Shown piece after piece: positions 19,160 through 31,602 of a stretch of DNA of 37,101 nucleotides; position 1 is the first letter of the stretch; every line of letters begins with the position of its first letter. The position numbers and the translations under genes were made by a program. The notes under the pieces are model-generated. The model had not been told where the DNA came from and made no database searches. It worked only from the letters and a program-made list of their open reading frames with translations. Source of the DNA: Methanobacteriota archaeon (GTDB lineage Archaea; Thermoplasmatota; Poseidoniia; MGIII; CG-Epi1); NCBI GenBank assembly GCA_002687355.1, contig NYZZ01000018.1, forward strand, positions 1-37,101. Direction: 5' to 3'.

Positions 19160-22100
19160 ATGGCTCGTCGCACGCGTAGGCGCCGTGAGAGCGCACGCAG
19201 TCGCCCGCTACTACATCCCAGCGCAGCTGCCGCCGTCACACCGACTGCTACGCCAGTCCGAACGCGTGAACCGGTCGAACCGCTCCACTGGCCCAGTGTA
19301 CTATCGCTACTCGGTATTTTCCTGCTCGCACTCACGCTGCGGACTGCCTGGACACTTGAGCCAGCGACCGCCGACGGCTTCCAGCTAACTGGAGGCAGCG
19401 ACCCATACTACCACAAGTGGGTGGTTGACCATGTCAGCGCGACTGGCGAGCACCTAGTCCACGATGATATGCTCAACTACCCCTATGGGGCGAACAACAA
19501 CCGGCCGCCGCTCTTCGACTGGTCCATTGCCATTGCGGGGCTAGCGCTGGCGCCCTTCTTCGGTGACGTTGAGGAGTCGACCTGGTGGGCGATGGAGGTG
19601 CTGCCCGCAATCTACGGTGCACTCATTGTCTTTCCCATTTACGCTATCGGTCGTGCACAGTTCGGCCGGCAAGCGGGACTACTAGCAGCGCTCTTCATTG
19701 CAGCCAACTCAGGGCATATTTCGCACTCGACCCTCTCGCTGGCTGATCACGACTCCTACATCGCGTTCTTTGGAACCTGCGCCTTCTTTTTCTTCATGCG
19801 AGCGCTCACTGAAGGGGGCGATGCCCGCTGGATTGCAGACTGGCGCTCTGTCGAGAGTGTCCGCAGTGGCTTCGCAAACTTCCTGCACTCCGAGCGGCTG
19901 GCGCTCGGCTACGCTGGACTTACGGGCATGACTTTGGCGCTGATTGCGCTAAGTTGGAAGGGATTTCCCTACCTGATGGTCATCATCGCCACCTATCTAG
20001 TACTGCAAATGGTCGTCAACCAGTTTCGAAGAGTCGACAGCCTGACCACTGCGATGCTCGGTATTGTCGCACTTTCGCTGCCACTCCTGATCTCATTTCC
20101 CTACTACCACCATATGGGGTTCATCGAAACCTGGTGGGACGCACCTGCCTACGTCCTGCTCGCCTTTATCGGCGCATCGGCACTGCTGGTGCCAACACGG
20201 GACCTGCCGTGGCTGCTGGTGCTAGGTGGCACTGCCACAGTCGCTACCATCGGTTACCTGCTGCTCACCTATGTCTTCACCGAACTAGGATTTCTGCTCT
20301 TCAGCGGGCAGGGCTACTTCGTCCGTACCAAGCTATTCGACACTATTGCTGAGGCGCAGCCACCCACCTTCGCCAATTTTGTCTTTTCCTTTGGGCCAAT
20401 CTCTGTCTGGTTCGGCTTCTTTGGACTGGCTTGGATGGCATGGCAGCTTTCCGGCGGTCGCACCTGGAAGAAGGACTACCTCTTCATCCTGACATGGTCG
20501 GCGGTTGCACTCTACATGGCGCAGTCCGCCATCCGCTTCATCTTCAACGCTACGCCAGTGATGGCATTGCTCTCGGGCTGGGTCACCTGGCAGCTCATCG
20601 AGCGTGCCGACTTCGGTGCGGTGCTGCAGGCATGGCGGCACTACTGGGGTCGCTATGGGCCGACCGTTTTCTTCCTAGCGCTTGGCTCGCTGTTGACAGG
20701 AGTTCTGTCTATTTTCGTGGTCGGGCTGCTGGAAGGCTTTCTGATTGGTATTCTACTGCTGGCACTGGTGCTGCTCCTCGGCGTCATGGCGGCAGGCGAA
20801 GACCAGTACCGTTTACGTGACCGCCTAAGCGGACTGCGACGCGCGTTCGAGATTAAACGACCGGCAATCGCGTTCGTAGTTGTAGGACTGCTGTTGCTTC
20901 CAAATGGCTTTCAGGGCTACGACGCCGGTATCCCCTACGAATCCAAGAAAGATCATGATACTGCAGTCTACGATTTTCTGCGCTACTCGCTGCTGCGACC
21001 GGATGAGTATCAGTACGCCGAGCGCGCCAATACCACTCTCTATCCTGACGGCGTAGTTGGGATGTATAATCGCACTGATAGCAGCGAGTTGTGGTATCTG
21101 GGGCTCAGTGGCCCGTCTTTCCCGGCCGACTACTGGATTGAGGGGCTAGAGTGGCTGGCGGAGCAGGACACTCACCTGCCGCCCCAGCAGCGACCTGGGT
21201 TCATTTCTTGGTGGGATTACGGCTTTTGGGCCATCGACATCGGAGAGCACCCGACCGTGGCAGACAATTTCCAGTACGGCTACCAGATGGCGGGCAACTT
21301 CATCGCTGCCCAATCAGAACAGGAGGCCATGGCGCTGATACTCTACCGCCTCATTGAACCAGAGGTGGACCGCAAGGGTGACCAGCGTTTCTCACCTCCA
21401 GTACGCGAGGTACTGCTACAGCACTACAGCGAGGATCAAGTGACGCAACTGGAGCATATCATCGCCAACGCGAGCGACTATATCCCTGACGATGACCCGG
21501 AGCTTAACCGACGTAACGCCGCCATCCGCGCCGGACGACCCATCTTGATGTCACAGCCGACCGATGTATTGGCTGACGCCATCTACGGCATCGAACAAGT
21601 GACTGGGCACTCCATTCGCTACTTCGCCGCCGACACGCGCCTTATGCCCTACTCGGCCGATAATACCGGTATCCTCTACGCGCCGGTAACACTCGCCGAT
21701 TACGAAATTGGAGATTTCGTCGAGGTGCAAGCTGTTCTCTCTAACGGCGAAACACTCGGCTTCACCGACGCTACAGAGATGCTGAAGCAGGACCCCACCC
21801 TGACCGTTACCGCACAGGAACTGACCTACAAAGAACGCTTCCTGAACTCTATGTTCTACCGTGCCTTCATCGGCTGGTCTGGTCCTGACCTAGGACGACC
21901 AATCGAAGATGGGATTCCCGGTATCTCCGGTGCGCTGGGTAGCGATCGTAACCTGCCCCCTATCCCGGCCTGGAACCTAACCCATTTCCGGTTGGTCGAG
22001 TTCAATAGCGGACTGCGCATCCTGAAATACTACGACGGCGCTGAAATATCTGGTGTTGTACGTACCCCCGACGGGGCGCCAGTACCGTACGCCAACCTGA

Positions 22101-25100
22101 CGCTAGTCGATGAGCTCCGCACCCCGCACGCGACCACCACCACCGACGACTATGGTCGCTACAGCCTGCTGGCGACTGCCGGTAACCACTCGCTGGCGGT
22201 CTCACTCGGAGGCTGGGAGAGCGACCAGGAAAAACTCTTCCTCACATCCAACAACTTGCTTACCATCCGCGAGTCGCTGCTAATCTCGGAGGCTCAGGCT
22301 ACCCGCCAGACGGATTGGCAAATTGAGTTAGACTTGGAGGTCGAACCGGCCAGCGTCAGCGGTCGACTCTTTTGGGACAAAACCGATGGAGAGCAGCCAC
22401 TCACTGGCGTCAGCGTTACTGCCCGGCAAGAATCTACAGACCGTGAATTCAGTGCGCTTAGCGATGGTGACGGTAACTACGTGCTGGAAGGTCTGGCCCC
22501 GAGTGAATACGTAATCACTGCCGACTACCGCGGTCACACGCTCGAGCTGGCGAGCTACGAGGGCGGTGCTGCGCTGCGTGCAGGACAGGCAGTAACGGCC
22601 GACGGCAGGTTCGCACCGGCACTGGTGTCGGGACGACTAGACTTCTCGCCGGAACTGACAGCGCGCCCGGTAGGGCTAATCCTTCACGACCACACCAACG
22701 GAACACTGATGGAACAGACCACTAGTGGAATGTTCGACTTCGGTGAACTACTTCCGGGCAGTTATACACTACAGCTGCTAGCTGACGACCTGCACAGCGA
22801 GTGGGGTAACAATACCCTGCCACTCGAGCTGGAAGCAGGAGATTTTGTGAGTCAGAACCTGAGTCTAGTGGGCGGCTTCCGACTGGAAGGGGTACTCACC
22901 AGCGGCGGTCAACCAATCTTTGATGAACAAATTTCCATCAAGGAAGTGAGTGGACAGCGCACTGCCGAGGTTTTCAGCACCGCCAGTGGCTATTTCACCA
23001 CAGTTCTACCGCACGGCCTATACGATTTGTACACCTTACAGGAGCATGGCGACGCTGTTACAGTCTATCTGGACCGAGTAGATAGTGAAAGCTATAGCGG
23101 GCCACTGGACGCGAGGCTAGTGGCAGGGAGTCGTGTCAGTGGCACGCTATTCATAGATTTGAACGGTAACGGACTTCACGATCACGACCTAGACGAAAAG
23201 ATAGCTGGTGGCATCTCGGTGCACTTCGACTCGCCCTACGGGAAGATTGAGGTTCCAACCAATTCTTTAGGTGATTACGAAGCGATTCTGCCACAGGGAG
23301 ACTTCACTGCCCACGCACTGAAAATGGACGAGAGGGGCGCGATGGCAGTGTTGCGGGTAATACAGGTGGAATACGGCAGCACGACTGCCGACTTGCCGTT
23401 GCTCCCGGCACAAGACTTGATGGTGCGGCTATATGAACAGCACCTAGGACAGGACCTGCCAGCTGATGGGTTGCTACAGCTGGAAGGCGACGGAGGTAGT
23501 CTCTCTACCTGGGTAACCGAAGCGGGCGGCGCTCTGATTTTGCCGTCAGGCAGCTACCGCCCGACGCTTGAGAAAAACGGCTACCACCTGATCGATGGGG
23601 AACGCTTCCAGCACTACGCAATACAGGAAGTTGTGCTGGAAATAGAGCGCGACCCGGTCGAAGTGAGTGGGCAACTGCTCTACTCCGGTGCGCCCGTAGG
23701 TGAATTCCAGATTAGCTTTATCCCCCTTAGTCAGCCCGAATATTACTATTTAAATTTCAGCACCGACGCATATGGCAATTTTGCGGTGCAACTACCACCC
23801 GACCAGTATCTCTATAGATTCAGCCGCGAAGTCGACGGCGTACGCTATCTAGCAGAGGGGCTGCTAGAACTAGAACTGGCTTCGCCGCCAGTTGCACTCG
23901 GAGTTGTCGAGACGGAGCTAGCGCTACATGTTGCAGGCCACGCCATTGGCGGAGCCGTGTCACAAGGAGGACAGCTGCATTTCACAGATACCGAGGACTC
24001 GGAACGCATTATCACGCTTGAGGCGACTCGCATTGACGGCTTCAATGGATGGGTCCCTCCGGGCGAATGGTGGGTACAATTCAATGATTTTTCGAACAGC
24101 AACCACTGGAGTTGGTTATCGACACTTCAGCTGGATACGCCGGTGGAGTTGGAGTTGGGGTTGACGCAGGGTCACTACCTGCACGGCGCGCTGCTATCGG
24201 GGCCAACTGGCCAAGTAGTCGAGGAGCCAGTAACCCTACAACTCAGCTCACCCGGTGGCACCCTGTTTATCGACGTGGAAGGTGGGGACTTCGATCCGCG
24301 CGATCTGCCGCCCGGCGAATATCTGCTTGATGCTGAACCAGAAGGCTTCCTGCCCTACTCGCAGGCAATCGAAATCGATGGTGCAACCTTCATGACAATA
24401 GAACTTGTGCCTGAGCCGGTCCCTCTGACGCTAAACCTGAGCTACCGCAACGCAAGCGGGAGCAAGCTGCCGCTAGCAGCAGGCATTAATCTAACACTCA
24501 GCCGCGAGGGGTATAGCCAAACCTGGACCACTGACGAGAACGGCAGCTTGACGCTGCCAGAGCTAATCCCAGCACGCTACGACTTGCTTGTCGACGCACA
24601 GCCCGGTGGAGGTGGCGACCGATTCAGCTTAGATCGCAGTCTGAACCTGCGCCCCGGACAAGGACACCAATACTTCGACTACACTGCTAGCTGGGAAGTA
24701 CAGGTGCAGGGTCGTGTGTTCTACGACCGCGACTTTGACGGCAAAACCGATGTAAACGAGCTGCTCCCCGATGCACAGGTCGAGTTTCATGATATGGCAG
24801 GTGCGACGATCATTGCTAGTCTGCAGACCAACGCTAACGGTGACTTCACTACCTGGCTGGTGCCTGGAAATTACTTGCTCTGGACCCGCTCCAGCACGGA
24901 CGCTAGCTACGTACTGCTTGAAACCCTAGAACTTGAAGGCTCTCTTGATCAAGATTTCTCGCTACAGCGTGGAGTCCACTATGCGCCCACCTTCCTGCGT
25001 GGCGACGACGGGAGTCCACTACCGGACCGGACTGTGACAGTCAGTGGCGGCCCAACGCCACTCGAGCTGCAGGCCAGCGACGGCACTCTCGAGCTACTGC

Positions 25101-26008
25101 TACCGGCAGGCGAGTATCATTTGGAGGCTGAATGGACCGAGCTGGAGTCTAGCCCCGACTGGATTTACGTTCTGGACCGCGATGAAACACTGACGCTGGA
25201 ACGCGACGGCGAGGTGTCGACTATCGAGCTGGAGCGGCAGCTGCTCCGAGGGGTCGACATCGTACTTGACCAGCAAATGGCCACGGGCACACTGGGGCAA
25301 TCGATTGACTTCGTGTTCAACTTGACTGGCAGCGGCTACCGCACTACTACCTTCAGCGCCTCGGTCTCGGACGCGCCAGCCAACTGGACCGCTAACTTCG
25401 GCTCGGGAGGACAGGTAACCGTTGCACAGGGCGAGACCGTGCAAACGATGTTGACCGTGATTCCCGACGACGGAGTCGTGCCTGGTGCATTCACCTGGTG
25501 GCAGGTTAGCTTCACCTGGACTGGCAGTGGCGAGCAAGACCCGCTTACCTACAACTACGAGCTACAGGTTATGCCACAGCAGCGACCGGCCCCTGATTTC
25601 ACAATTAGCGAGGTGACTTGGTCACCCTTTGAGTCTATCGTTACGGGGAGCGAGGTAACGCTGCGCGCGACAGTGCAAAACACCATCCATAATTCCGGGA
25701 CTCACTTTCCGCAGGTGACATTTTACGCGGGTGACGAAATCATCGAGATGACTAGTGCCGAGTTCGACGGTGAAAGCGAGTGGCTAGTCGAGACCACCTG
25801 GACGGCTGATGAGGGAAACACCGTAATTCGAGTTATGATCGACCCCGAGTCGCTGTTCGAGGAGCAAGATGAGACAAACAATGAACAACTGCTGACGCTG
25901 GCCGTCTACACACCAGTCGAAGAGAGTGAGGAGACGCCTTGGATACTAGGAGCTGCTGTCGTGCTGCTGCTAATGATTGCCTACTTCGCGTTCCGGTTAC
26001 GTCGCTAG
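19160..26008 (+). CDS. aglB: Oligosaccharyltransferase AglB/STT3 with long C-terminal beta-sandwich extension, CARDB-like domain and terminal TM anchor
   Basis: DPYYH, ADHD, TIAE, SWWDYG, ADNFQ; repeated (V/I)SG...G.(Y/F)...L.PG.Y units; PDF.I...IDP....E.DETNN; final TM helix + RLRR. Confidence 0.93.
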   Translation: MARRTRRRRESARSRPLLHPSAAAAVTPTATPVRTREPVEPLHWPSVLSLLGIFLLALTLRTAWTLEPATADGFQLTGGSDPYYHKWVVDHVSATGEHLVHDDMLNYPYGANNNRPPLFDWSIAIAGLALAPFFGDVEESTWWAMEVLPAIYGALIVFPIYAIGRAQFGRQAGLLAALFIAANSGHISHSTLSLADHDSYIAFFGTCAFFFFMRALTEGGDARWIADWRSVESVRSGFANFLHSERLALGYAGLTGMTLALIALSWKGFPYLMVIIATYLVLQMVVNQFRRVDSLTTAMLGIVALSLPLLISFPYYHHMGFIETWWDAPAYVLLAFIGASALLVPTRDLPWLLVLGGTATVATIGYLLLTYVFTELGFLLFSGQGYFVRTKLFDTIAEAQPPTFANFVFSFGPISVWFGFFGLAWMAWQLSGGRTWKKDYLFILTWSAVALYMAQSAIRFIFNATPVMALLSGWVTWQLIERADFGAVLQAWRHYWGRYGPTVFFLALGSLLTGVLSIFVVGLLEGFLIGILLLALVLLLGVMAAGEDQYRLRDRLSGLRRAFEIKRPAIAFVVVGLLLLPNGFQGYDAGIPYESKKDHDTAVYDFLRYSLLRPDEYQYAERANTTLYPDGVVGMYNRTDSSELWYLGLSGPSFPADYWIEGLEWLAEQDTHLPPQQRPGFISWWDYGFWAIDIGEHPTVADNFQYGYQMAGNFIAAQSEQEAMALILYRLIEPEVDRKGDQRFSPPVREVLLQHYSEDQVTQLEHIIANASDYIPDDDPELNRRNAAIRAGRPILMSQPTDVLADAIYGIEQVTGHSIRYFAADTRLMPYSADNTGILYAPVTLADYEIGDFVEVQAVLSNGETLGFTDATEMLKQDPTLTVTAQELTYKERFLNSMFYRAFIGWSGPDLGRPIEDGIPGISGALGSDRNLPPIPAWNLTHFRLVEFNSGLRILKYYDGAEISGVVRTPDGAPVPYANLTLVDELRTPHATTTTDDYGRYSLLATAGNHSLAVSLGGWESDQEKLFLTSNNLLTIRESLLISEAQATRQTDWQIELDLEVEPASVSGRLFWDKTDGEQPLTGVSVTARQESTDREFSALSDGDGNYVLEGLAPSEYVITADYRGHTLELASYEGGAALRAGQAVTADGRFAPALVSGRLDFSPELTARPVGLILHDHTNGTLMEQTTSGMFDFGELLPGSYTLQLLADDLHSEWGNNTLPLELEAGDFVSQNLSLVGGFRLEGVLTSGGQPIFDEQISIKEVSGQRTAEVFSTASGYFTTVLPHGLYDLYTLQEHGDAVTVYLDRVDSESYSGPLDARLVAGSRVSGTLFIDLNGNGLHDHDLDEKIAGGISVHFDSPYGKIEVPTNSLGDYEAILPQGDFTAHALKMDERGAMAVLRVIQVEYGSTTADLPLLPAQDLMVRLYEQHLGQDLPADGLLQLEGDGGSLSTWVTEAGGALILPSGSYRPTLEKNGYHLIDGERFQHYAIQEVVLEIERDPVEVSGQLLYSGAPVGEFQISFIPLSQPEYYYLNFSTDAYGNFAVQLPPDQYLYRFSREVDGVRYLAEGLLELELASPPVALGVVETELALHVAGHAIGGAVSQGGQLHFTDTEDSERIITLEATRIDGFNGWVPPGEWWVQFNDFSNSNHWSWLSTLQLDTPVELELGLTQGHYLHGALLSGPTGQVVEEPVTLQLSSPGGTLFIDVEGGDFDPRDLPPGEYLLDAEPEGFLPYSQAIEIDGATFMTIELVPEPVPLTLNLSYRNASGSKLPLAAGINLTLSREGYSQTWTTDENGSLTLPELIPARYDLLVDAQPGGGGDRFSLDRSLNLRPGQGHQYFDYTASWEVQVQGRVFYDRDFDGKTDVNELLPDAQVEFHDMAGATIIASLQTNANGDFTTWLVPGNYLLWTRSSTDASYVLLETLELEGSLDQDFSLQRGVHYAPTFLRGDDGSPLPDRTVTVSGGPTPLELQASDGTLELLLPAGEYHLEAEWTELESSPDWIYVLDRDETLTLERDGEVSTIELERQLLRGVDIVLDQQMATGTLGQSIDFVFNLTGSGYRTTTFSASVSDAPANWTANFGSGGQVTVAQGETVQTMLTVIPDDGVVPGAFTWWQVSFTWTGSGEQDPLTYNYELQVMPQQRPAPDFTISEVTWSPFESIVTGSEVTLRATVQNTIHNSGTHFPQVTFYAGDEIIEMTSAEFDGESEWLVETTWTADEGNTVIRVMIDPESLFEEQDETNNEQLLTLAVYTPVEESEETPWILGAAVVLLLMIAYFAFRLRR

Positions 26009-26162: not shown

Positions 26163-26213
26163 GGTTTCGAATTTCACGCCCAATTCCTTAATTCCGCTAT
26201 GATATGGGGGGGC

Positions 26214-27092
26214 GTGAGGCAGTATCTGGAGCTGGTAAAGGAAGTCCTCAACCGAGGAACACGCAAGGCAAACCGTACTGGCGTCGATACCGTTTCAGCA
26301 TTCAATATCAACTACTCTGTCGATATGGAAAGTGGTTTTCCGCTACTGACAACCAAAAAAATATCGTGGAAGAACATTGTTGTCGAGAATCTCTGGTTCC
26401 TCTCGGGCGACCTGCATATCGGGCTAATGCAAAAGCACGGATGTAAAATCTGGGATCCGTGGGCCGATGACGCAGGCTACGTGCCGAGCGCCTACGGGAA
26501 TTTCTGGCGCAACTTTCCGGTCCACGACGGTGACCATGCTAGCTTCAACGACCAAGTGCGCTACGTGCTGCAGACATTGCGTGAAAGTCCTGACAGCCGG
26601 CGCATGGTCATCTCAGCTTGGGCACCTGGTAACGCGCAGAGTAGCGCACTGCCACCCTGCCACCTCATGTTCATTTTCAACGTCCAGTACACTGAAACAG
26701 GTGAGCCTAGGCTCTGCCTGCACCTCACGCAACGTAGCTGTGATGTTGCGCTAGGGGTGCCGTACAATATTGCCGGCTATGCATTCCTGCTCCACCTTTT
26801 CGCTCATTTAGTGGGAATTCAGCCCGGCATCTTCGGTCACTCGCTAGTCGATGCGCACATTTACACTGCCAAGCCAGACGGTTCGATGGCCGAATACGAC
26901 CACGTTCCGGGACTGCAAGAGCAGCTGCTGCGTGAACCGCGACCGCGACCGCAACTCACAATCAACCCGGCGCTTGCAACGTTCGATGACGTGCTAGCAC
27001 TATGCGACGCCGACCTTGAGTCAATTCTAGCTGCATTCCGGATTGATGACTATGATCCACACCCTGCCATTGCCTTCAAGGTCGCAGTGTGA
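26214..27092 (+). CDS. thyA: Thymidylate synthase
   Basis: QYLEL, RTGVDT, FPLLTTK, ALPPCH, QRSCD, GVPYN, AHIY. GTG 26214 preferred by family N-terminus (MxQYL). Confidence 0.96.
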   Translation: MRQYLELVKEVLNRGTRKANRTGVDTVSAFNINYSVDMESGFPLLTTKKISWKNIVVENLWFLSGDLHIGLMQKHGCKIWDPWADDAGYVPSAYGNFWRNFPVHDGDHASFNDQVRYVLQTLRESPDSRRMVISAWAPGNAQSSALPPCHLMFIFNVQYTETGEPRLCLHLTQRSCDVALGVPYNIAGYAFLLHLFAHLVGIQPGIFGHSLVDAHIYTAKPDGSMAEYDHVPGLQEQLLREPRPRPQLTINPALATFDDVLALCDADLESILAAFRIDDYDPHPAIAFKVAV

Positions 27093-27553
27093 GCGGAACC
27101 CTTCTGGCGGCAATCTCGCCCGATATGGTTATCGGCCGTGATGGAGGAATTCCATGGCACTACCCGGGCGATCTGCGGCGATTCAAACGACTGACATTGG
27201 GCCACACGATCGTGATGGGGCGCCGCACCTGGGAATCACTGCCAAAACGGCCGCTGCCGGGACGGCGTAACCTAGTACTCACTTCACGCAACCTCGACGG
27301 GTGTGAGTGCTTTAGGTCGCTCGCTAAAGCAGTGGCGGCTATAGATGGTGAAATGTTCTTCATCGGTGGTGCACAGCTATACCGTGAAGCGCTAAGTGTC
27401 GCTGACCTCATTGACCTTACATTGGTGCCTGATGAGGTACCGATGGAGGGGAGTGTGCTGTTTCCGCCGATTCCTCCGGAGTGGGAACCAGGGCCAGTTG
27501 AGCCGCATCCCGACGAGCCGAAGCTGCGGTTGCAATGCTGGGCACGGCGCTAG
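27089..27553 (+). CDS. folA: Dihydrofolate reductase
   Basis: IGRDGGIPW, DLRRFK, VMGRRTWES, RPLPGRRN, IGGAQLY; GTGA overlap with thyA. Confidence 0.95.
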   Translation: MSGTLLAAISPDMVIGRDGGIPWHYPGDLRRFKRLTLGHTIVMGRRTWESLPKRPLPGRRNLVLTSRNLDGCECFRSLAKAVAAIDGEMFFIGGAQLYREALSVADLIDLTLVPDEVPMEGSVLFPPIPPEWEPGPVEPHPDEPKLRLQCWARR

Positions 27554-28326
27554 CCACTACGCCAGTCGGGGTCGTTGCGCAGCACCCACAACGGGCTGCC
27601 AATGATGTAAATGGCGGTGAACAGTGTCGCCACGGTCCACAACAGTTCCCACACAGCGTAGCGCTGCCACGCGGCTAGGATAGCGAGCTGTAGCAACAGC
27701 ACTGCTCCGAAAATAGGCAGCAGCATCTGCCCACGTGCCTTCAGAAGTGGTAACGTCGTAACCATAGCGAATGCCATCAGTCCAAGCAGAGCTGGCGGCC
27801 ATGTCGCTGTGTTGCCGGTGAGCCAGGAAAAACGTAGACAAACAATTAGCACCAAGACCATCATCGCTGGTGTTGGCATCCCTGAGAAATGGCGCAACTG
27901 CTCCTCACGCTCATACGTGAAGCGCGCCAACCGCAACACTCCTAGCAAACCAACCAGTAACGCACCTGTCAAAGCCAGCATATTTGGCACGTCCCAGTCA
28001 CCACTGAGTGAAAGCGCCGGACCGCGCGACAGCTCGTACCAGAGTGTATAGATGAGTGCCGTCGGTGCGAGGCAGAAGCTAACCATGTCAGCCATTGAGT
28101 CTAGCAGTGGTCCGAAGCGGTGGCTCGAGCCGTAGCGGCGCACAAGCATTCCGTCGATGCTGTCAAGAAACGCTCCGGTCACTAACAGTAGCATTCCAAT
28201 CAAGATTGCGCTGCGCGTCCCATCAAGGAAGTAGGTAATCGCTAGCAGGCCACACCCTGCGTTGCCGAGTGTAGCCAGGTCGCCATATGATATCTGAAGC
28301 AAGGGTCGGAAGAGCTTGCGCAGCAT
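27550..28326 (-). CDS. pssA: CDP-alcohol phosphatidyltransferase, phosphatidyl/archaetidylserine synthase type
   Basis: DLATLGN...G, DSIDG...R...FG..LDSMADMVSF..AP, LRLARF, FSGMPTP. Confidence 0.9.
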   Translation of the reverse strand: MLRKLFRPLLQISYGDLATLGNAGCGLLAITYFLDGTRSAILIGMLLLVTGAFLDSIDGMLVRRYGSSHRFGPLLDSMADMVSFCLAPTALIYTLWYELSRGPALSLSGDWDVPNMLALTGALLVGLLGVLRLARFTYEREEQLRHFSGMPTPAMMVLVLIVCLRFSWLTGNTATWPPALLGLMAFAMVTTLPLLKARGQMLLPIFGAVLLLQLAILAAWQRYAVWELLWTVATLFTAIYIIGSPLWVLRNDPDWRSG

Positions 28327-29873
28327 TACGGCCTCGTCAGGCGCGCCACGGTCTGGCCTGCTTGCAGCTTCTGTCCTGGCGTGACTACCATCTTGGCCTT
28401 CCCCGGTAATTCCAGATCAACTCGCGAACCGAGGTGGATTATGCCAATACGCTCGCCCTTCACCAGTTGCTGCCCTTCGGAGAGGTAGCTAGTGATACGC
28501 CGGGCTAATGCGCCAGCAACCTGTATCACCACTACTAACCCGATAGCGGTCTCGAGCTCAGTACGCAGCTGCAAGTTGACGTCCGCATCAGCACCATAAG
28601 CAGGGTTGAAGCCAACTCCAGAACGGTGCTGCGCCACGACACGACCATCCAGCGGCGCGCGGTTGACGTGGACGTCCAGCGGTGACATGAAAATTGAGAG
28701 TTGTGCACGCCCGCCCTGCTCGTTAACGGAAAGCACCGTCCCGTCAGCGGGGCTGACGACATCATCCTCAATCAGCCGTTGCGGGTCGCGATGGAACCAA
28801 AGTAACCCGCTACCAAGCACTAACAGCGTCGCCGCAGCCCAGCCAGCTCCACGTAATGGCATATCAGACGGCAATCCCGTGGCAGCGGCGAACGGCACCA
28901 GCGCCAGCCCCAGTGCGGCGGCAGCATAAATCCAGCCCGGAGTACCAGCAGCGAAAGGAGGCGTGCGCCTTCCCGACGGTGGTTCACGCCATGGCAGGTC
29001 CATCACCCCTAGAATGGCGTCCTGCATCTCTGGCAGGTAGTGGAACACGATATACGCCAGCGCAACTAGCGCAATCAGGCTGCCACCTTTCCCTATCCAA
29101 GCGTGCGCGTAGTAGAATGTATCCTCTCCCCACACATTCTGGTAGGTAAGCCAGATAACTACGGCGTTCCGAATCAGATTGAGCAAATAAATAGTGGGCA
29201 CAGTCGCCAAGAACGCGTAAAGACGGCGCTGACGCGGTGCGCTAGTACAGAGCACGCCGCCAACGAAGATTATCATCGACTGCAACGCAGTGCACGCCAG
29301 TACGATGCTGACCGGGGATGACATCGGGTCGCGCCACTCAGCCTCGACGGGGACGCTCACGCCCTGATGCGTTGAGCCAATACGGTACCAACGCGAGCCG
29401 GAACCGTAATCCAGTGCTTCCAGCGCAGTCGGATAGCCGAATATATCAAGCAGCCAAACCGATTGCTCTGCCACTACTAGGATTAGCCATCCTGCCAGTA
29501 GCGGGATTCGCTCAACCAGGAAATATATTCCACCGGCGACTATGGTCATCGCTACTAGCCAGCGCAACGCAGGGTATTCCTGCTTCCAGTAAATAGTAAG
29601 CCAATGATGGTATGCAAGGTAGCCAAAGAACGGCAGCGCCATAGCGCAAAAAAATGCGTTGACGGGATCGTTAACTGGAAGTGTCGCGTAGTATGCGACC
29701 TCACTCCACCAGAAACCACCCAACGCCAGCCATCCAACCATGCAGAGCCGGTGGCCAGCAGTAACCGGCAGCCTACGTCCTGCAAATGCATGGGGGCCAC
29801 TTGAGAGCCAGTAGCCTGCCGTGAGTAGCAGCAACGACCCAATGGCGAGTACCTCACTGGCCGGTATCATCAC
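28326..29873 (-). CDS. artA-psd: Fusion of archaeosortase A (N-terminal) and phosphatidyl/archaetidylserine decarboxylase proenzyme (C-terminal)
   Basis: ArtA part: IVLACTALQSM (C194), LNLIRN (R235), FYYAH..IGK. Psd part: FHRDP, SPADG, SIFMSPLDVHVNRAP, QVAGALARRI, GERIG...LGSRVD. One uninterrupted frame. Confidence 0.92.
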   Translation of the reverse strand: MMIPASEVLAIGSLLLLTAGYWLSSGPHAFAGRRLPVTAGHRLCMVGWLALGGFWWSEVAYYATLPVNDPVNAFFCAMALPFFGYLAYHHWLTIYWKQEYPALRWLVAMTIVAGGIYFLVERIPLLAGWLILVVAEQSVWLLDIFGYPTALEALDYGSGSRWYRIGSTHQGVSVPVEAEWRDPMSSPVSIVLACTALQSMIIFVGGVLCTSAPRQRRLYAFLATVPTIYLLNLIRNAVVIWLTYQNVWGEDTFYYAHAWIGKGGSLIALVALAYIVFHYLPEMQDAILGVMDLPWREPPSGRRTPPFAAGTPGWIYAAAALGLALVPFAAATGLPSDMPLRGAGWAAATLLVLGSGLLWFHRDPQRLIEDDVVSPADGTVLSVNEQGGRAQLSIFMSPLDVHVNRAPLDGRVVAQHRSGVGFNPAYGADADVNLQLRTELETAIGLVVVIQVAGALARRITSYLSEGQQLVKGERIGIIHLGSRVDLELPGKAKMVVTPGQKLQAGQTVARLTRP

Positions 29874-29906
29874 TCCGCGCGACGCCTCCCCGCTAAAAAA
29901 GACTCT

Positions 29907-30632
29907 TCAACTGAAATGAGCACATGCCGCTGCGTACGATTCGGGGTCGCCGATGTCAAACCATGTCCCGGCATAGGCAATGCCGCGCACTCTTGCACGG
30001 CTGCTGCGCCATGCCAAGAAATGTCCTAATGCATCGCGCTGTCCGCCGTCATCGAGGAACTCATCGAGAGCGCTGACACCACTAGAGGAGAGCAGCCAAC
30101 AGGCAGTCGCCGCCAGAGTAGAACGTGGTACGGACGGTTTCTCGACAAAATCGACAATGACGCCGTCCTCCAGCGTGGCGATGCCATAGAGTTGCGCTAG
30201 CTCTCGATTCTGGACGTCGTAGAGCGCAATGATGTCGTCGCCGGTGGCCTCGTACAACCCTACTAAGCGGCTGAGATCAAAGTCAAAAAGATTGTCGCCG
30301 GCGGCGATGAAAAGCGGTCCTGTCAGATGCTGTGCCTCTACCAATTGCCATAGGGCGCCCAGTGCGCCTGGCTTCTCGCCTTCGCTGTGCGCCTGCTCGA
30401 CTGTCAGCTCTACTTGCAGCGGACCGTTGTAGCTGGTGATGAAGGCATCGAACTGGCTAGCAAAGGCTGCGTTAACCGCGAGAATCACACGATTGGGAGC
30501 GACGGCCTCGAGCGAGCGCAGTACGTGCGCTAGTAGTGGTTCGCCTGCGACAATGAGTAGCTGCTTAGGGGTATCGCTTACCAGCTCCCCCATGCGGCTC
30601 GCAAAGCCACCCGCCAGAACGATTGCGTCCAT
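29907..30632 (-). CDS. Sugar-phosphate nucleotidyltransferase (NDP-sugar synthase family)
   Basis: AIVLAGGFASRM...PKQLL, AGDN, FVEKP, WFDIG. Confidence 0.9.
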   Translation of the reverse strand: MDAIVLAGGFASRMGELVSDTPKQLLIVAGEPLLAHVLRSLEAVAPNRVILAVNAAFASQFDAFITSYNGPLQVELTVEQAHSEGEKPGALGALWQLVEAQHLTGPLFIAAGDNLFDFDLSRLVGLYEATGDDIIALYDVQNRELAQLYGIATLEDGVIVDFVEKPSVPRSTLAATACWLLSSSGVSALDEFLDDGGQRDALGHFLAWRSSRARVRGIAYAGTWFDIGDPESYAAACAHFS

Positions 30633-31519
30633 CAGAGCGATATCTTGCCGCCGGCCATCAGTTCCTTGATAGCATCATCGGCAGCCTCAGCGAGCTTCGT
30701 GTCATCGTATAGCGCCTGCTTCACGGCCTGATGGCGGTCGCGTACCTGTTTCCAGCGCGCCTGCTGCTCCTCGCGCGTCACCTTACGGTGCTGTCGCAAG
30801 TGATCAAGCATCTCCATCGCGCGTTGGTGCTGGTGGTCTGCTCGCTGGCGAATATCGACAAATTCCTGATGTTTCTTGTCTGCCTCTCCAGAGAGATGCG
30901 ACGCCTCCTGCATCATTTCGGTCATCTTGTCGTATAATTTTGAATTGAGCTTCGCCAATCGCACCACTTCCTGATGGTGCTGGTCCGCCTCACTGAAGTG
31001 AGTGTCGATTGACTCGTCGAGCTCGCCCACCTCGGCATGCAGGTGTTCCTGCTCCTCCAACGACACCTGTTGCTCGTTCAGGCTGCGACGCAGGATGGAA
31101 ATACGATCAAGCAAGTCGCGCTCCCGGGCAATTGACATTTCGGTTGTCTCGAGTCGTCGCTCGGATGCCATGATTTCCGACATTAGTGCCTGAACTGTGT
31201 CACGTAGCCCCCCCGAGCCCCGGCCGTTCTTCCGCTTCGCCTTCTTGGCGGCAATTAGCTTGTGAGCCTGGTTACGCAGCCGGTCCCGGGTCTGCATACT
31301 CTGGCCCTTGGCGCGCGAGTTGGACTTCATTTCCTCGCGCAGCGCTAGAATCTGTTCCATCACCTTATGGCGCTGCTCATGCAGTGCATCGCGTTCGTCG
31401 CGTAACATGCGCGACTCGTTATTGAACTCATTGCGGCGCTCTACGAAGCGCTGGAATTGCTCTTCTGAGCGCTGTATTTCGGTTTTAGGCTTGCGCTGCC
31501 CCTTCTTACGTTGCGCCAT
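30632..31519 (-). CDS. Archaeal long coiled-coil protein (COG1340-like)
   Basis: E/R/K/Q-rich heptads, ETT.MS...E..L, ADxxHQE, ends GGKISL; TGATG overlap with the next gene. Confidence 0.8.
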   Translation of the reverse strand: MAQRKKGQRKPKTEIQRSEEQFQRFVERRNEFNNESRMLRDERDALHEQRHKVMEQILALREEMKSNSRAKGQSMQTRDRLRNQAHKLIAAKKAKRKNGRGSGGLRDTVQALMSEIMASERRLETTEMSIARERDLLDRISILRRSLNEQQVSLEEQEHLHAEVGELDESIDTHFSEADQHHQEVVRLAKLNSKLYDKMTEMMQEASHLSGEADKKHQEFVDIRQRADHQHQRAMEMLDHLRQHRKVTREEQQARWKQVRDRHQAVKQALYDDTKLAEAADDAIKELMAGGKISL

Positions 31520-31544
31520 TGGAAGCGGGGGACGGCTAGCGCGG

Positions 31545-31554
31545 TAATATAAAA
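31545..31554 (-). promoter_or_regulatory. TATA box
   Basis: TTTTATATTA on the minus strand, 26-35 nt before ATG 31519. Confidence 0.65.
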
Positions 31555-31602
31555 TCAACCTCTCAGACAGGAGGTGTGCTGTTTGAACTATATCGCCGGG
31601 AA

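Follow-up and report, generated by a model that had tools for sequence, protein, structure and literature searches.

A natural archaeosortase A-phosphatidylserine decarboxylase fusion in Marine Group III archaea: a variant of the ArtA/Pss system

We found that the DNA of a Marine Group III archaeon (contig NYZZ01000018.1 of assembly GCA_002687355.1, analyzed as one stretch of 37,101 nucleotides, hereafter the window) encodes archaeosortase A (ArtA) and phosphatidylserine decarboxylase (Psd) as one polypeptide. It is well supported that this is a natural 'Rosetta stone' fusion, in which archaeosortase A is joined to the decarboxylase of its own lipid-supply pathway. The fused gene, artA::psd, lies at 28326..29873 on the minus strand as a single open frame of 515 aa from a GTG at 29873; because homologues start with MIPASE, the ATG at 29870, which gives 514 aa, is the likelier start. 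Using hidden Markov models (HMMs), we found 146.7 bits for archaeosortase A (TIGR04125, cut-off 75) over residues 41-293 and 62.9 bits for the exo/archaeosortase signature (TIGR04178, cut-off 23), and the same protein scored 111.2 bits for phosphatidylserine decarboxylase (PF02666, cut-off 22) over residues 358-510, covering profile positions 6-197 of 198. Both domains on one protein are far beyond chance. An earlier first-pass annotation, made from the letters of the DNA, had read a single 515-aa frame with ArtA and Psd, and these scores bear it out, with TIGR04125 and PF02666 both above cut-off on one protein as it had suggested checking.

The fusion is a natural feature and not an assembly error. 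A word-indexed search of 5.8 billion proteins gave 178 relatives; the best 120, which we examined, are 512-578 aa long, align over 98-100% of the query with 53-95% identity, and carry both Pfam labels in 117 cases. They are named 'archaeosortase A' in NCBI and UniRef (Marine Group III CG-Epi4, Poseidoniales, Thermoplasmatota) and 'phosphatidylserine decarboxylase' in JGI, and two ESM Atlas clusters named 'Archaeosortase A' (95 and 110 members) have both families in 95-99% of members. The window's own order was sampled as 45 species genomes in genera g1-g4, and full-length fusion was found in 34 of the 41 genomes of g1 and g2 together. Genus g1, to which the window belongs, has seven full-length fused genes and two contig-end fragments among 9 genomes (in G007 the contig ends at the match). 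Genus g2 has 27 full-length fused genes among 32 genomes, along with one fused gene with a run of N (G009), one contig-edge fragment, and three genomes without a match, which are 70-76% complete. The fused gene is split in both g3 genomes, and in both genomes of g4, a second family, artA and psd are adjacent yet separate.

Sequencing data from elsewhere are continuous across the fusion. Thirteen DNA runs from 8 studies hold at least 97% of the stretch's sampled words, and some of them may be the source of the assembly; contigs of a run from another study match the stretch without difference, one of them spanning 28381-29289, and run X15 covers only 29237-29900, off the junction. RNA-library contigs (90-99% likeness) covered 27 of 30 bins, and a 252-nt contig among them crosses the junction (28842-29093) with 15 substitutions and no gap. 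DNA may be present in such a library, and these contigs hint at transcription of the fused stretch. The first-pass annotation had asked for reads across the linker; the junction-spanning contigs have no indels, we found neither a stop nor a frameshift, and relatives are not always split.

The junction (28935..29030, minus strand, residues 282-313) consists of an amphipathic stretch and a Pro/Arg linker, DLPWREPPSGRRTPPFAAGTPG. As had been claimed, the linker offers the second part no start codon, with no in-frame ATG, GTG or TTG in 28941-29000; an in-frame GTG (Val326) and ATG (Met338) lie downstream of the linker, within the membrane hairpin, and Met338 is not conserved. Seven junction residues are invariant in 26 fused proteins (Asp292, Leu293, Pro294, Arg296, Pro306, Ala308 and Pro312). 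We found that the ratio of nonsynonymous to synonymous substitution rates (dN/dS) in five pairwise comparisons within g1 is 0.00-0.12 for the junction, a segment of 32 codons only; in the same comparisons ArtA has 0.01-0.09, the hairpin 0.15-0.34, and Psd 0.11-0.22. The junction codons are under purifying selection. This bears on a neutral explanation, in which overlapping, coupled genes lost a stop codon and the product works as two proteins with no kinetic or regulatory gain. We regard neutrality as unlikely, though a serious contender: the junction is as constrained as ArtA itself and has seven invariant residues, the fused state has been kept through two genera and down to 53% identity, and the need of Haloferax ArtA cleavage for both PssA and PssD, reported in the available text of PMC7157517, makes some coupling plausible.

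The neutral explanation draws its strength from how the fusion arose. In the unfused sister family (G025, G026), artA (482-483 aa), psd (217-221 aa), and pssA (340-361 aa) follow one another with successive 4-nt overlaps. Its ArtA (L014:2861-4312, minus strand; L015:221-1669, plus strand) bears an acidic tail rich in Asp, Asn, and Gly, roughly 110 aa long and absent from the fused form; in G025 the protein is further enlarged, between its Cys span and its Arg span, by an insert of about 70 aa that includes two additional hydrophobic stretches. Among 24 unfused artA-psd pairs of other Thermoplasmatota, 17 have a 4-nt overlap, five have gaps of 1-42 nt, and two have longer overlaps that rest on longest-open-reading-frame calling; psd is followed by pssA in the unfused loci where we looked. 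Matches to both ArtA and Psd were found in 8 of 14 Marine Group II genomes, at separate sites in each, and the class's remaining 206 genomes (205 from the two Marine Group II families) gave no match at E <= 1e-40. The linker of the fused protein reads REPPSGRRTPPFAAGTPGWI; its REPPSG resembles the ArtA tail of the sister family, which begins ...REPPNG, and its AGTPGW resembles the sister Psd N-terminus, which begins M..ARGTPPWI. Hence, as the linker matches both the start of the sister ArtA tail and the start of Psd, fusion eliminated the acidic tail together with the stop codon. It arose by stop loss between two overlapping genes of an artA-psd-pssA operon.

A second lineage fused independently. 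Of the best 150 hits in a scan of 1.84 billion representatives, only two proved to be full fused clusters: that of the window protein and P0128, a 444-aa protein with 104.7 bits for TIGR04125 and 32% identity to the window protein. Its lineage comprises Thermoplasmata metagenome-assembled genomes, and all three genomes searched (G076, G086, G094; loci L028-L030) are fused, at 444-447 aa and without stops. The second fusion has the same domain order and the same Cys/Arg/His and Gly-Ser motifs as the first, but a shorter outer loop, a different junction, and a separate origin; its pssA-like gene is on another contig, and the family nearest to it has adjacent genes with stops between. A tree was inferred from 38 rows of concatenated ArtA and Psd parts (509 columns, careful IQ-TREE search), with support given as ultrafast bootstrap/SH-aLRT. 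The Marine Group III fused clade (100/100) is sister to its unfused sister family (96/92), and the second fused lineage (100/100) falls in the other clade with 22 unfused rows (97/95). Forcing all fused rows together was 71 log-likelihood units worse (approximately unbiased test, p-AU 9.6e-11), and the fused state needs three changes on this tree.

The third of these changes reversed the fusion: genus g3, represented by one row that combines its two genomes, is nested in the fused clade (100/99), and its fission loci are L017:2389-3222 (G010) and L016:2503-3411 (G012). The stand-alone Psd of g3 (277 aa) joins about 25 ArtA N-terminal residues directly to the linker motif PFAKGMP and shares 71% identity with a fused protein of g2, and the g3 ArtA (302 aa) ends within the linker in ancestral synteny. 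Hence, given this reversal and the unfused state of most Thermoplasmatota genomes examined, the fusion is not required, and the benefit of fusion may be small. These are the grounds for taking neutrality seriously: a single small change suffices to fuse genes that overlap by 4 nt, as they do in 17 of 24 unfused pairs, the C-terminus of ArtA and the N-terminus of Psd are on one side of the membrane so that no new span is needed, the state has two origins and one reversal, and pssA is unlinked in the second fused lineage. The 'self-contained machine' of the first-pass annotation therefore stands as a fusion and falls as an obligatory machine, being a derived, twice-arisen, once-reversed state of a common operon.

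The ArtA domain (28974..29873, minus strand, residues 1-300) has about eight hydrophobic spans in addition to its TIGR04125 match. Its catalytic residues are Cys194 (TGC, 29292-29294) and Arg235 (CGG, 29169-29171), with His257 and Lys262 in the loop that follows span 7, all on the minus strand. We found Cys194, Asn232, and Arg235 in all 67 ArtA-containing alignment rows, and His257 in 34 of 34 aligned rows, a methanogen and a haloarchaeon among them, with Lys262 in 33 of 34; these 34 rows were kept from 40 after a motif filter removed 6. The Cys194-Arg235 spacing of 41 residues equals that of Haloferax Cys173 and Arg214. C194, R235, and H257 were placed correctly in the first-pass annotation, and its K261 is Lys262 in its own numbering. 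The Cys, Arg, and His-Lys that it listed are not the set shown to be critical in Haloferax volcanii ArtA, for which the available text of PMC9263693 gives Cys173, Arg214, and Arg253 as the critical residues.

The Psd part begins with a two-span membrane hairpin (28794..28934, minus strand, residues 314-360, by hydropathy), which also heads stand-alone Psd proteins, and continues as the Psd catalytic domain (28329..28793, minus strand, residues 361-515), the seat of the 111.2-bit PF02666 match. Asp377 (28743-28745), His402 (28668-28670), and Gly482-Ser483 are residues that we take to be the cleavage triad, after bacterial Psd. The self-cleavage site Gly482|Ser483 lies in an HLGSRVD motif, and its Ser was confirmed as a TCG codon at 28425-28427; cutting there leaves residues 483-515, which agrees with the 33-aa alpha chain proposed earlier. 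Conservation is 95 of 95 rows for His402 and for Ser483, 93 of 95 for Gly482, and 91 of 95 for Asp377, and at least 30 further Psd columns are conserved. The fused open reading frame (ORF) is the sole PF02666 match of the window's genome (70.7% complete) and of each of five relatives that are 91-97% complete. It would be very surprising, then, if the Psd part were dead or regulatory, a lipid sensor or scaffold beside a sortase that alone is catalytic: its scores fall short of the NCBIfam equivalog cut-offs for archaetidylserine decarboxylase, as that idea would have it, but Gly482-Ser483, His402, Asp377, and the further conserved columns, a domain dN/dS of 0.11-0.22, the lack of any other Psd in the five near-complete genomes, and a pssA kept adjacent all speak for a working enzyme.

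Immediately downstream lies pssA (27550..28326, minus strand, 258 aa), which encodes a CDP-alcohol phosphatidyltransferase and putative archaetidylserine synthase (PF01066, 45.9 bits, cut-off 22). The TAA of the fused gene and the ATG of pssA share base 28326 (the DNA reads ...CCG TAA TG CTG...), confirming the overlap seen at first pass. PssA bears DSIDGMLVRRYGSSHRFGPLLDSMAD, which fits D-x2-D-G-x2-A-R...G-x3-D-x3-D save Val for Ala, a pattern that we take to be the CDP-alcohol phosphatidyltransferase motif, and its top NCBIfam models are serine-lipid synthases, all below cut-off (TIGR00473, 81.8 against 107). The fused gene is followed by pssA in 10 of 10 family loci looked at, and translational coupling of pssA to the fused gene is supported.

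Hydropathy gives the order of about eight ArtA spans, the basic linker, two spans, and the Psd domain, with five hydrophobic spans separating the loop before Cys194 from the Psd catalytic domain; five also separate the Cys loop from Psd in the second fused lineage. Searches of PDB sequences with the fused protein and with an alignment profile found no relative. Mean Lys+Arg in the 26 fused proteins is 3.1 for loop 211-218, 1.0 for loop 245-263, 3.3 for the linker (282-313), 0.19 for loop 335-344, and 2.4 for the segment from 361 that opens the Psd domain. If Psd is cytoplasmic, as expected of an enzyme acting after PssA, the linker lies inside and loop 245-263, with His257 and Lys262, outside; this places Cys194 at the outer end of predicted span 6 and Arg235 in the outer half of predicted span 7. 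Hence, the ArtA C-terminus and the Psd N-terminus would be on the same membrane side, and no extra span was needed for fusion. With the active sites on opposite faces, the product would therefore have to cross the bilayer before ArtA could use it.

This arrangement tells against the proposal that the amine lipid passes straight to the transpeptidase, for which the first-pass annotation had itself named opposite faces as the refuting finding, and opposite faces are what we predict, by hydropathy only. In such channeling the tethered Psd would hand archaetidylethanolamine directly to the sortase site without mixing with the bulk membrane. The covalent tether, with a beta chain that would stay on ArtA after cleavage, is in keeping with it, and so is a fused gene that is the sole Psd of five near-complete relatives; moreover, the Haloferax authors note little free archaetidylethanolamine and suggest immediate use (PMC7157517, available text). 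Nevertheless, the odd number of spans (five) between the pre-Cys194 loop and the Psd domain and the charge pattern of the C-terminal half set the two sites at opposite faces, and the head group would need to cross the bilayer with no flippase-like part evident. We therefore find direct hand-over improbable, and co-localization with fixed stoichiometry is the likelier gain.

On balance, we think it probable that the fused protein is a bifunctional membrane protein, sortase and decarboxylase, whose gain is co-localization and a fixed 1:1 stoichiometry with no closed channel. We infer the biochemical steps as follows. The ArtA part would act as a cysteine transpeptidase that clips a C-terminal PGF-type sorting signal off secreted surface proteins, leaving a lipid anchor, and the C-terminal part would be the proenzyme of an archaetidyl/phosphatidylserine decarboxylase, which brings a two-span hairpin of its own and has its catalytic domain in the cytoplasm. 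The pssA product would make the serine lipid. Going by its motif, Psd would cut itself at Gly482|Ser483 to yield a 33-aa pyruvoyl alpha chain, and the beta chain would stay on the sortase, in support of the first-pass annotation on this point. Psd would then make the ethanolamine lipid at the inner leaflet beside the sortase helices, this lipid would have to get to the outer leaflet, and there, in the unproven Haloferax model, the lipid amine would resolve the Cys194 acyl-enzyme and leave the protein amide-linked to lipid. A bolder version, in which the ethanolamine lipid serves anchoring only, the cell's one Psd is tethered to the sortase, and the ArtA bundle itself guides or flips new lipid from the inner leaflet to the outer Cys as one synthesis-flipping-transpeptidation machine, strikes us as improbable.

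Several points weigh against our reading of a bifunctional protein. The topology comes from hydropathy, and charge leaves the orientation of ArtA's N-terminal half ambiguous (Lys+Arg totals of 10.2 and 10.5 on the two sides); a candidate reading that merges spans 4 and 5 into a single crossing would agree with the charges of that half. The specific models fall short: archaetidylserine decarboxylase TIGR00164 gave 136.4 against 230 and the 'protein sorting system' type NF038088 gave 143.6 against 240, and because both scores fall below these whole-protein cut-offs we file the Psd part under PF02666 only; likewise, the sorting-system model NF038086 gave 61.7 bits against 200 for PssA. Haloferax Arg253 could not be mapped, and the Arg of Natronococcus ArtA, 7 residues before the His, corresponds to Glu250 here. 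The best scores of the PGF-CTERM model TIGR04126 in the window's genome, 17.0 and 15.3 bits, are below its cut-off of 24.5. The fusion has been undone in g3, and most Thermoplasmatota genomes looked at are unfused. Finally, the organism is uncultured, the members of the fused family are known from sequence alone, and the ethanolamine lipid as the anchor is itself only a model (PMC7157517, available text).

Candidate substrates are present in the genome. Surface-type proteins (CARDB, cupredoxin, PKD/WD40, YHYH) have LPGF or LPxxS, a hydrophobic span, and an RRRR end. Four ORFs have a literal PGF, one of them beside a second archaeosortase-family gene, and at least four have the LPxxS type, each with the hydrophobic span and Arg-rich end; of seven such ORFs scanned, five have extracellular-type domains and two have no Pfam match. 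The second exo/archaeosortase-family gene (C36:33660-34463, minus strand, which is L003:1456-2259) encodes 268 aa with 29.4 bits for TIGR04178, reaches no specific subfamily, and has a counterpart in all five near-complete relatives. About 470 nt from it, an ORF ends in VPGFESS, a hydrophobic span, and RMKRDNE; possibly, the two are a dedicated sortase-substrate pair. In G009, a convergent 129-aa ORF directly after pssA (L067:2585-2974, minus strand) ends in LLPGPSF, a hydrophobic span, and RRKK, and is a small candidate sortase substrate.

Around the operon, a sugar-1-phosphate nucleotidyltransferase gene (29907..30632, minus strand, PF00483, 85.4 bits) lies 33 nt upstream of the fused gene and possibly belongs to its transcription unit; it also adjoins artA in G012. 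The gene of a DUF7121 coiled-coil protein (30632..31558, minus strand) has a stop that overlaps the start of the nucleotidyltransferase gene and is likewise kept as a neighbor in G012. On the other side, thyA and folA (dihydrofolate reductase) at 26199-27553 on the plus strand overlap by 4 nt and converge on pssA, and the order thyA-folA | artA is retained in G012 despite the departure of psd-pssA. Outside the operon, a 2282-aa protein whose N-terminus is of the STT3 oligosaccharyltransferase type is encoded at 19160..26008 on the plus strand; the best match of this N-terminus is TIGR04154, the 'archaeosortase A system-associated' oligosaccharyltransferase (214.7 bits, below the cut-off of 450). 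It has a very long extracellular part and ends in ETPWILG, a hydrophobic span, and RLRR, which is sorting-signal-like without PGF.

Other long frames were also considered. Among long frames around psd in four other Thermoplasmatota genomes, which at first resembled additional fusions, L055-L057 proved to be ordinary Psd of 210-216 aa, and L058, a longest ORF of 558 aa, has an Arg/Pro-rich stretch before an ordinary Psd that we take to be stop-poor DNA of high GC content. No triple ArtA-Psd-PssA fusion was found among the best 120 relatives, which are at most 578 aa long. The three longest scanned of the best 150 representatives (P0139, P0180, and P0213; 578-604 aa) are ArtA homologues with an N-terminal pentapeptide-repeat region, which is another archaeosortase architecture and not PssA. 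In P0218 (278 aa), the final 86 residues of a g1-type Psd, at 81% identity, are preceded by an unrelated N-terminal part; this is probably a chimeric contig.

A natural ArtA-Psd fusion is mentioned neither in the available text of PMC7157517 (Abdul-Halim et al. 2020) nor in that of the reviews PMC9385802 and PMC12186497; full-text literature searches found no paper joining archaeosortase with Poseidoniales or Marine Group II, and among the papers listed none joins it with Marine Group III or Thermoplasmatota. The first-pass annotation knew of no described fusion; this stands insofar as we found no paper describing one, but databases hold the architecture under single-domain names. In the Haloferax work, association of the enzymes and the role of archaetidylethanolamine as nucleophile could be no more than suggestions (PMC7157517, available text). 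A natural fusion with two origins offers comparative evidence, independent of that work, for ArtA and the decarboxylase working side by side, and it provides a single-chain object for structure, complementation, and the question of lipid crossing. These loci also extend the artA-psd-pssA operon past methanogens to Thermoplasmatota, including abundant marine plankton with an unstudied envelope.

The fusion is a variant of the known ArtA/Pss system, and the evidence favors co-localization and stoichiometric coupling. In Haloferax, ArtA-dependent cleavage and lipidation need both PssA and PssD, as the first-pass annotation stated, the three proteins co-localize at midcell, and the authors suggest a complex (PMC7157517, available text, as for the comparisons below). 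The same three families and the same proposed chemistry are found here, with the archaetidylethanolamine amine resolving the Cys acyl-enzyme. However, Haloferax has three separate genes and proteins, whereas here ArtA and the decarboxylase form one polypeptide with pssA overlapping its stop, and the window ArtA is only a distant relative of Haloferax ArtA, whose Arg253 could not be placed on it. Bacterial rhombosortase/GlyGly-CTERM resembles our proposal in that signal removal is coupled to a glycerophosphoethanolamine-containing moiety, but its protease is non-homologous, and fusion to a lipid-synthesis enzyme is not mentioned in that text (PMC7157517). In Methanosarcina, artA, pssA, and pssD are genomically linked, as here, without a reported fusion, whereas the Thermoplasmatota order is artA-psd-pssA with mostly 4-nt overlaps (PMC7157517, citing Haft et al. 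2012, for Methanosarcina). Closest of all is the unfused Thermoplasmatota operon, which has orthologous genes, the same order, and the same Psd hairpin, and in which a stop separates artA from psd.

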